From: Escherichia coli 042
Lineage (GTDB): Bacteria > Pseudomonadota > Gammaproteobacteria > Enterobacterales > Enterobacteriaceae
Strand: one strand, 5' to 3'
NCBI RefSeq assembly: GCF_000027125.1
Contig: NC_017626.1
Length of the DNA: 64,000 nt
Both the position numbers and the translations under genes were made by a program. The number at the start of each line of letters is the position of its first letter. Positions within the stretch are counted from its first letter, which is position 1. Below the pieces are notes generated by a model, which was not told the origin of the DNA, did not search any database, and saw nothing but the letters and a program-made list of their open reading frames with translations. This document shows, one piece after another, positions 7,814 through 7,833 of the stretch.

Positions 7814-7833
7814 TGCTGGATAGATATCCAGCG
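7814..7833. promoter_or_regulatory. LexA (SOS) box upstream of ruvAB
   Basis: tgCTGgatagatatcCAGcg: a CTG-N10-CAG palindrome about 50 bp upstream of the ruvA start. Confidence 0.85.

Follow-up and report, generated by a model that had tools for sequence, protein, structure and literature searches.

The spacer upstream of ruvA in Escherichia coli 042 holds a palindrome that resembles a LexA-binding site, which raises the question of whether it is the operator (SOS box) of the ruvAB operon, the stem of a transcription terminator, or a fortuitous symmetry around a promoter hexamer. We addressed this question within the window, the whole 64-kb stretch of DNA that was analysed, and in the corresponding loci of related Enterobacteriaceae. 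The gene layout, based on the ORF listing and on transferred RefSeq annotation, places yebC (9199-9939), ruvC (8643-9164), yobI (7903-7968, 21 aa), ruvA (7153-7764, with a GTG start) and ruvB (6134-7144) on the minus strand, and yebB (8039-8641) on the plus strand. ruvA and ruvB are the first and second genes of the regulated operon; yobI, upstream of the proposed operator, is context only and lies outside the regulation by the box. The spacer between yobI and ruvA is 138 nt long and contains the palindrome at 7814-7833, 50-69 nt 5' of the ruvA GTG. The palindrome is overlapped by no open reading frame of at least 50 aa, and with ruvA starting at 7764 and yobI occupying 7903-7968 it is intergenic; a location inside coding sequence would have spoken against the first-pass annotation. 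The Shine-Dalgarno sequence of ruvA, AGGAG (7771-7775, minus strand), is part of a block, CGCAGGAGC, conserved in the cross-species alignment. The 501 bases around the site are matched by 5425 of 5426 complete E. coli genomes, with identities of 90-100%.

The palindrome as a LexA box

Positions 7814-7833 read TGCTGGATAGATATCCAGCG on the plus strand and, as the reverse complement, CGCTGGATATCTATCCAGCA on the strand of ruvA; CTG at 7816-7818 and CAG at 7829-7831 delimit a CTG-N10-CAG core (7816-7831). The 20-mer agrees with the LexA consensus TACTGTATATATATACAGTA, i.e. TACTG(TA)5CAGTA, at 14 of 20 positions. Its heterology index (HI) was calculated with the Berg-von Hippel/Lewis formula as the sum over the 20 positions of ln[(n_consensus+0.5)/(n_observed+0.5)], using a matrix of the 18 E. 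coli LexA boxes given in PMC3009722 Table 4, or of 17 when ruvA was left out. The full set of 18 sites gives an HI of 6.54, the set without ruvA 8.52 and a symmetrised matrix 8.64, absolute values being slightly off the published ones because the matrix holds the 17-18 sites of one paper and not the original Lewis/Fernandez de Henestrosa set. With these values the ruvA box ranks among those of cho, uvrD and uvrB, ahead of dinB, ftsK, polB and dinG. The published HI, quoted from Courcelle et al. 2001 in PMC11228462 (Table 1), is 7.6, and an HI below 15 serves as the working limit for LexA-repressed genes (PMC11002266). The first-pass annotation, which quoted the sequence correctly, had held that it fits the LexA consensus and had put the limit of a credible site at an HI of about 15; at 6.5-8.6 the box lies far under that value.

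Among all 20-mers on both strands of the window the ruvA box scores best with the matrix from which ruvA was left out, and with the symmetrised matrix it leads the runner-up by 4 HI units (8.64 versus 12.67). An equally good site occurs in 3% of 200 random 64-kb sequences generated by a first-order Markov model, so that the motif alone is only suggestive and it is the context that makes the case. The bare CTG-N10-CAG count carries no information, since the 31 copies found in the window are close to the 33.5 expected from trinucleotide frequencies (other spacings give 20-52). An apparent enrichment obtained by dinucleotide shuffling (31 versus 13.4) was rejected as an artefact of trinucleotide usage, the abundance of CTG and CAG in E. 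coli making the shuffle expectation too low.

The element is already known. The ruvA LexA motif printed as the 25-mer TTCGCTGGATATCTATCCAGCATTT in PMC3009722 Table 4 is found exactly on the minus strand of the window, and the 20-mer on the ruvA strand is letter for letter the published box. K-12 MG1655 and BW25113 are among the 4863 of 5426 complete E. coli genomes that match the 50 nt centred on the box exactly; compared with the ruvAB SOS box of E. coli K-12, the 20-mer, its flanks and the gene context are the same, the strain being the only thing that is other. Reviews count ruvAB among the LexA-regulated operons. The first-pass observation is confirmed and its interpretation as an SOS box is supported, the finding itself being an ordinary one.

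Nothing comparable lies 5' of uvrY or uvrC, as had been judged by eye; the best 20-mers there have HI values of 19.0 (spacer upstream of uvrY) and 15.6 (upstream of uvrC). The three next best 20-mers of the window, at 41197-41216 inside otsA, at 23420-23439 in the last codons of argS and at 38201-38220 inside flhC (the last with a left half-site that lacks CTG), have HI values of 10.2-10.8, or 12.7-13.5 with the symmetrised matrix, and were set aside as chance occurrences because they are in coding sequence away from promoters. Scanning the window for CTGT-N8-ACAG, a check proposed in the first-pass annotation, yielded a single exact copy at 38079-38094, 16-31 nt upstream of motA; owing to its G+C-rich centre it has an HI of about 17 and is not LexA-like.

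Two further box-like sites in the spacer itself were also rejected. A second CTG-N10-CAG occurs at 7869-7884, 53 bp upstream of the main box and just past the yobI stop; its 20-mer (7867-7886, minus strand TACTGTGCCATTTTTCAGTT) has an HI of 15.0-16.5, and a further Escherichia lineage (L012) has TACAATGCC at this place, without the CTG. The other site, at 7796-7803, is a perfect half-site, TGCTGTAT, that shares bases with the -10 hexamer of ruvA and abuts the main box; it is without a second half, its ACAG is unconserved, and the 20-mer at 7796-7815 has an HI of about 15 (14.7-15.1).

Some features of the window far from the box were recorded in passing. Rfam matches above the gathering score were obtained at 20097-20404 (minus strand), 33663-33740 (plus strand) and 51955-52254 (minus strand). 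The Rfam matches include the MicL sRNA, which overlaps cutC (20176-20922) and runs about 80 nt past the cutC stop, the C0465 RNA between cheW and tar, and three tRNAs that are annotated as Leu, Cys and Gly in the nearest genome. The fliC region (62501-63380) could not be aligned with a reference strain that is otherwise 98.7-98.8% identical, as is to be expected of the variable central part of fliC.

Promoter overlap and conservation in the Enterobacteriaceae

A consensus scan of the yobI-ruvA spacer finds one sigma-70-like promoter, on the strand of ruvA, with the structure TGGATA-17-TATCAT, which is also what genomic SELEX with the RpoD holoenzyme gives for the ruvAB promoter in this spacer (PMC3946193). 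The -35 hexamer TGGATA (7825-7830, minus strand) is situated within the palindrome, and the same hexamer is predicted by consensus scan in Salmonella; the -10 hexamer TATCAT (7802-7807, minus strand) is nearly invariant, as TAT[G/C/T]AT, in the cross-species alignment. The palindrome extends over the -35 hexamer and the larger part of the 17-nt promoter spacer, and its placement in the ruvA promoter by the first-pass annotation is borne out. We infer a transcription start about 7 nt past the -10 hexamer, around 7795, which would put the operator at roughly -38 to -19.

Conservation was examined in species-representative genomes scanned for RuvA, which provided 80 loci, each from a different species of Enterobacteriaceae and with a RuvA identity of at least 90%, from genera that include Escherichia, Citrobacter, Salmonella, Klebsiella, Enterobacter, Kluyvera, Kosakonia and Raoultella. 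The 78 loci with enough upstream DNA were analysed over the 350 nt 5' of ruvA. The 20-mer with the best HI in this interval is the orthologous palindrome in 78 of 78 species, and in 76 of them it is found 67-72 nt before the ruvA GTG. In the two others, Pseudenterobacter timonensis and Enterobacter sp. RIT418 (L042 and L079), it is at -195 because an ERIC repeat has been inserted between the promoter/operator and the Shine-Dalgarno sequence. The repeat, of about 125 bp, occupies 1336-1460 of L042 and the same position in L079, and contains the reverse complement of AGTAAGTGACTGGGGTGAGCG.

Both arms of the core CTGGAT-N4-ATCCAG are invariant 5' of ruvA in all 78 species, whereas seven variants of the central 4 nt occur (ATCT, GTTT, ATTT, AAAT, AAAC, ATGT and ATTC). 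The box also varies at its two outermost positions on either side, and the DNA farther upstream is unalignable between groups. The right arm, ATCCAG, is invariant although it lies in the promoter spacer, where RNA polymerase makes no demands on the sequence, and this argues for a factor that reads the palindrome. The invariance of the left arm could partly reflect the -35 hexamer, and that of both arms could partly reflect a hairpin requirement.

In E. coli a block of about 800 bp with yebB (plus strand) and yobI (minus strand), window positions 7833-8642, separates ruvC from the box. Most relatives are without this block, and homology to the Citrobacter-type ruvC-ruvA arrangement stops at 7832/7833, where the operator has its outer edge. 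In other lineages this spot between ruvC and ruvA carries insertions of different DNA.

We consider it close to certain that 7814-7833 is the LexA operator of the ruvAB operon. On the computed side this assignment is based on the identity to the published box, the HI, the rank within the window, the overlap with the promoter and the conservation; lexA-dependent induction is taken from the literature, occlusion of RNA polymerase follows from general knowledge of LexA, and direct binding of LexA at the ruvA box is taken from secondary sources and the general knowledge of the field. A LexA dimer bound over a promoter excludes RNA polymerase. At ruvAB, the dimer would contact both CTG/CAG half-sites and, with the operator reaching across the -35 hexamer and most of the spacer, would deny RNA polymerase access to the promoter. 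When DNA is damaged, LexA would cleave itself under stimulation by RecA, the promoter would become free, and transcription of ruvA and ruvB would rise about 2-3 fold.

A terminator-like hairpin on the same bases

On the strand of ruvA the palindrome is directly followed by a tract of seven T residues (7807-7813), which forms part of the promoter spacer and would also be the U-tract of a terminator-like hairpin. In a transcript reading through from yobI, the sequence GCUGGAU-AUCU-AUCCAGC (7815-7832, minus strand) would fold into a 7-bp stem with a 4-nt loop, followed by A and U7, with a predicted energy of -10.6 kcal/mol (z = -4.2 against shuffles), 70 nt past the yobI stop. The consensus scan flagged GCTGGATATCTATCCAGC followed by ATTTTTTTAT as terminator-like. 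In the common enterobacterial form, GGCUGGAU-AUCU-AUCCAGCC, the stem is 8-9 bp long and has about -14.6 kcal/mol, z values ranging from -4 to -5 with the E. coli form included. The T-tract is nearly invariant, the tail beginning with TTTTTTTAT in 71 of the 78 species.

The order yebC-ruvC-ruvA-ruvB on one strand, with the ruvC stop about 10 nt before the palindrome, is found in 50 of the 78 species. The GG..CC outer pairs, which lengthen the stem to 8-9 bp (about -14.5 kcal/mol), are kept in 49 of these 50 versus 13 of the 28 species in which other DNA is inserted, and where ruvC is not adjacent the outer stem pairs are lost without compensation. The core stem pairs never vary in the 78 species and are thus silent on the helix, for or against. 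In the locus L048 the element occupies 1428-1461. In Salmonella it reads TAA-tgacaaatga-GGCTGGATATCTATCCAGCC-TTTTTTTATGAT, and the terminator-like and the ruvA promoter predictions fall on the same bases.

The portion of the E. coli Term-seq 3' end tables drawn on here (PMC7815308) gives no 3' end for yobI or ruvA, yobI perhaps being too weakly expressed, and gives the primary 3' end of ruvC as antisense inside yebB. Estimated from the printed 61-nt sequence of that portion, and provided that its last base is the end, the ruvC 3' end is about 48 nt past the ruvC stop (window 8595-8645, minus strand). Since this end is within yebB and the stop codons of ruvC and yebB nearly abut, the entries used point to a convergent overlap of ruvC and yebB at the transcript level.

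The hairpin could mean that the palindrome serves primarily as the stem of a Rho-independent terminator, of yobI in E. coli and of yebC-ruvC in most relatives, its resemblance to a LexA box being secondary or, at most, an additional function. The scan result and the predicted energies of -10.6 and -14.6 kcal/mol are in line with this, as are the position of the hairpin about 10 nt past the ruvC stop in 50 of 78 species, the retention of GG..CC where ruvC is adjacent (49 of 50 versus 13 of 28), a T-tract that is nearly invariant though a promoter spacer needs none, and the coincidence of both predictions on one piece of DNA in Salmonella. As a sole explanation, however, it fails on the arms of the palindrome: plain stems drift by compensatory changes, and here the arms are invariant in 78 species, with pairs that never vary and give the helix no covariation support, and they spell CTG...CAG at the LexA spacing. 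Shared ancestry and the position of the insertion junction at the left flank confound the association of the outer pairs with an adjacent ruvC, and the Term-seq tables, in the portion used, place the end of the ruvC transcript within yebB and have no entry for yobI or ruvA (PMC7815308). A lexA-dependent induction of ruvAB is moreover published (PMC11228462), and we regard a palindrome that is primarily a terminator stem as very improbable.

Still less credible, to the point that we give it hardly any weight, is a fortuitous palindrome that happens to include the -35 hexamer of the ruvA promoter without playing any part in the binding of a repressor. The abundance of bare CTG-N10-CAG (31 in the window, as composition predicts), the HI of the ruvA box being reached in about 3% of random 64-kb sequences, and the overlap of the left arm with TGGATA would all be compatible with chance. 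Against it stand the right arm, ATCCAG, which is in the spacer and stays invariant in 78 species when the central bases vary, the top score within the window of a site placed in the promoter of an operon with lexA-dependent induction (PMC11228462), and the listing of the site as a LexA box in the literature (PMC3009722, PMC11228462).

With the LexA operator as the preferred reading, the hairpin may still represent a second role of the same DNA. We tentatively propose, as a possibility suggested by the sequence comparison and one that we consider rather less likely than its opposite, that the ruvAB SOS operator, GGCTGGAT-N4-ATCCAGCC, together with the T7 tract is also the stem of an intrinsic terminator located about 10 nt past the ruvC stop in most Enterobacteriaceae, the E. 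coli form having been detached from ruvC by the yebB/yobI insertion. In that case a single 30-bp element would combine three tasks, terminating the constitutive yebC-ruvC transcript, providing the ruvAB promoter with its -35 hexamer and spacer, and serving as the binding site of LexA, and the terminator would insulate the damage-inducible ruvAB from read-through. In E. coli, where the yebB/yobI insertion would have separated the element from ruvC, what remains would be a weaker hairpin with flanks that match LexA better (CG..CA, HI 8.5 versus 11.1). The ruvA element shares with intrinsic terminators a G+C-containing stem, a 4-nt loop, seven U residues and a position downstream of a gene on the same strand; it differs from them in that its stem is frozen and not covarying, in that the same DNA is promoter and operator, and in that the portion of the E. 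coli Term-seq tables used has no 3' end there (PMC7815308). Literature searches for a combined ruvC terminator and SOS box yielded no description of one, which proves neither novelty nor error.

Operator strength and published expression

Like the ruvA box, that of cho (ydjQ), CACTGGATAGATAACCAGCA, has the unusual CTGG...CCAG half-sites; its core, CTGGATAGATAACCAG, differs from that of the ruvA site, CTGGATAGATATCCAG on the plus strand, at one position in 16, and the HI values are similar (5.7 for cho, 6.5 for ruvA), although cho is a different gene at a different locus. The strong operators (such as those of sulA, umuDC and recN, of the type TACTGTATATAAAAACAGTA) have in common with the ruvA box the CTG-N10-CAG core, an A/T-rich centre and the overlap with a promoter. 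The ruvA box departs from them by G/C in place of T/A at positions 6/15 and by ends CG/CA in place of TA/TA, and has an HI of 6.5-8.5 compared to 0.3-2. These symmetrical departures from the consensus, with G at position 6, C at position 15 and outer flanks rich in GC, would make it an operator of medium strength, which would fit a sizeable basal expression and a modest induction of ruvAB.

The published expression data bear on this point. ruvAB is induced about 2-3 fold, as opposed to 15-50 fold for genes with strong LexA operators (PMC11228462). Upon AZT treatment ruvA is up 2.0 fold and ruvB 2.8 fold, and the dependence on LexA cleavage amounts to 1.9 fold and 2.6 fold, respectively (PMC11228462 Table 1). 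With ciprofloxacin the log2 change of ruvA/ruvB is about 1-1.6, i.e. about 2-3 fold (PMC11002266), and ruvA belongs to the UV-induced gene set that yielded the LexA motif (PMC3009722). A modest induction of ruvAB is expected for a mid-range HI and for a gene with housekeeping roles. The Salmonella ruvA box, GGCTGGATATCTATCCAGCC, with flanks GG..CC, has an HI of 11.1 with the same matrix, and ruvA is absent from the genes induced in Salmonella by nalidixic acid (PMC8072944), which implies that regulation via the operator is weak in at least some relatives.

The ruvAB box represents textbook LexA control of the Holliday-junction branch-migration genes, and its main value here is that of a positive control: a real operator can be recognised by eye from the bare sequence. 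The only part that possibly adds something is the palindrome with its T-tract after the ruvC stop in most Enterobacteriaceae. If the proposed second role is true, the element would be a compact case of a single piece of DNA acting as terminator, promoter and operator, and it would explain how ruvC stays outside SOS control with ruvAB, immediately downstream, inside it.
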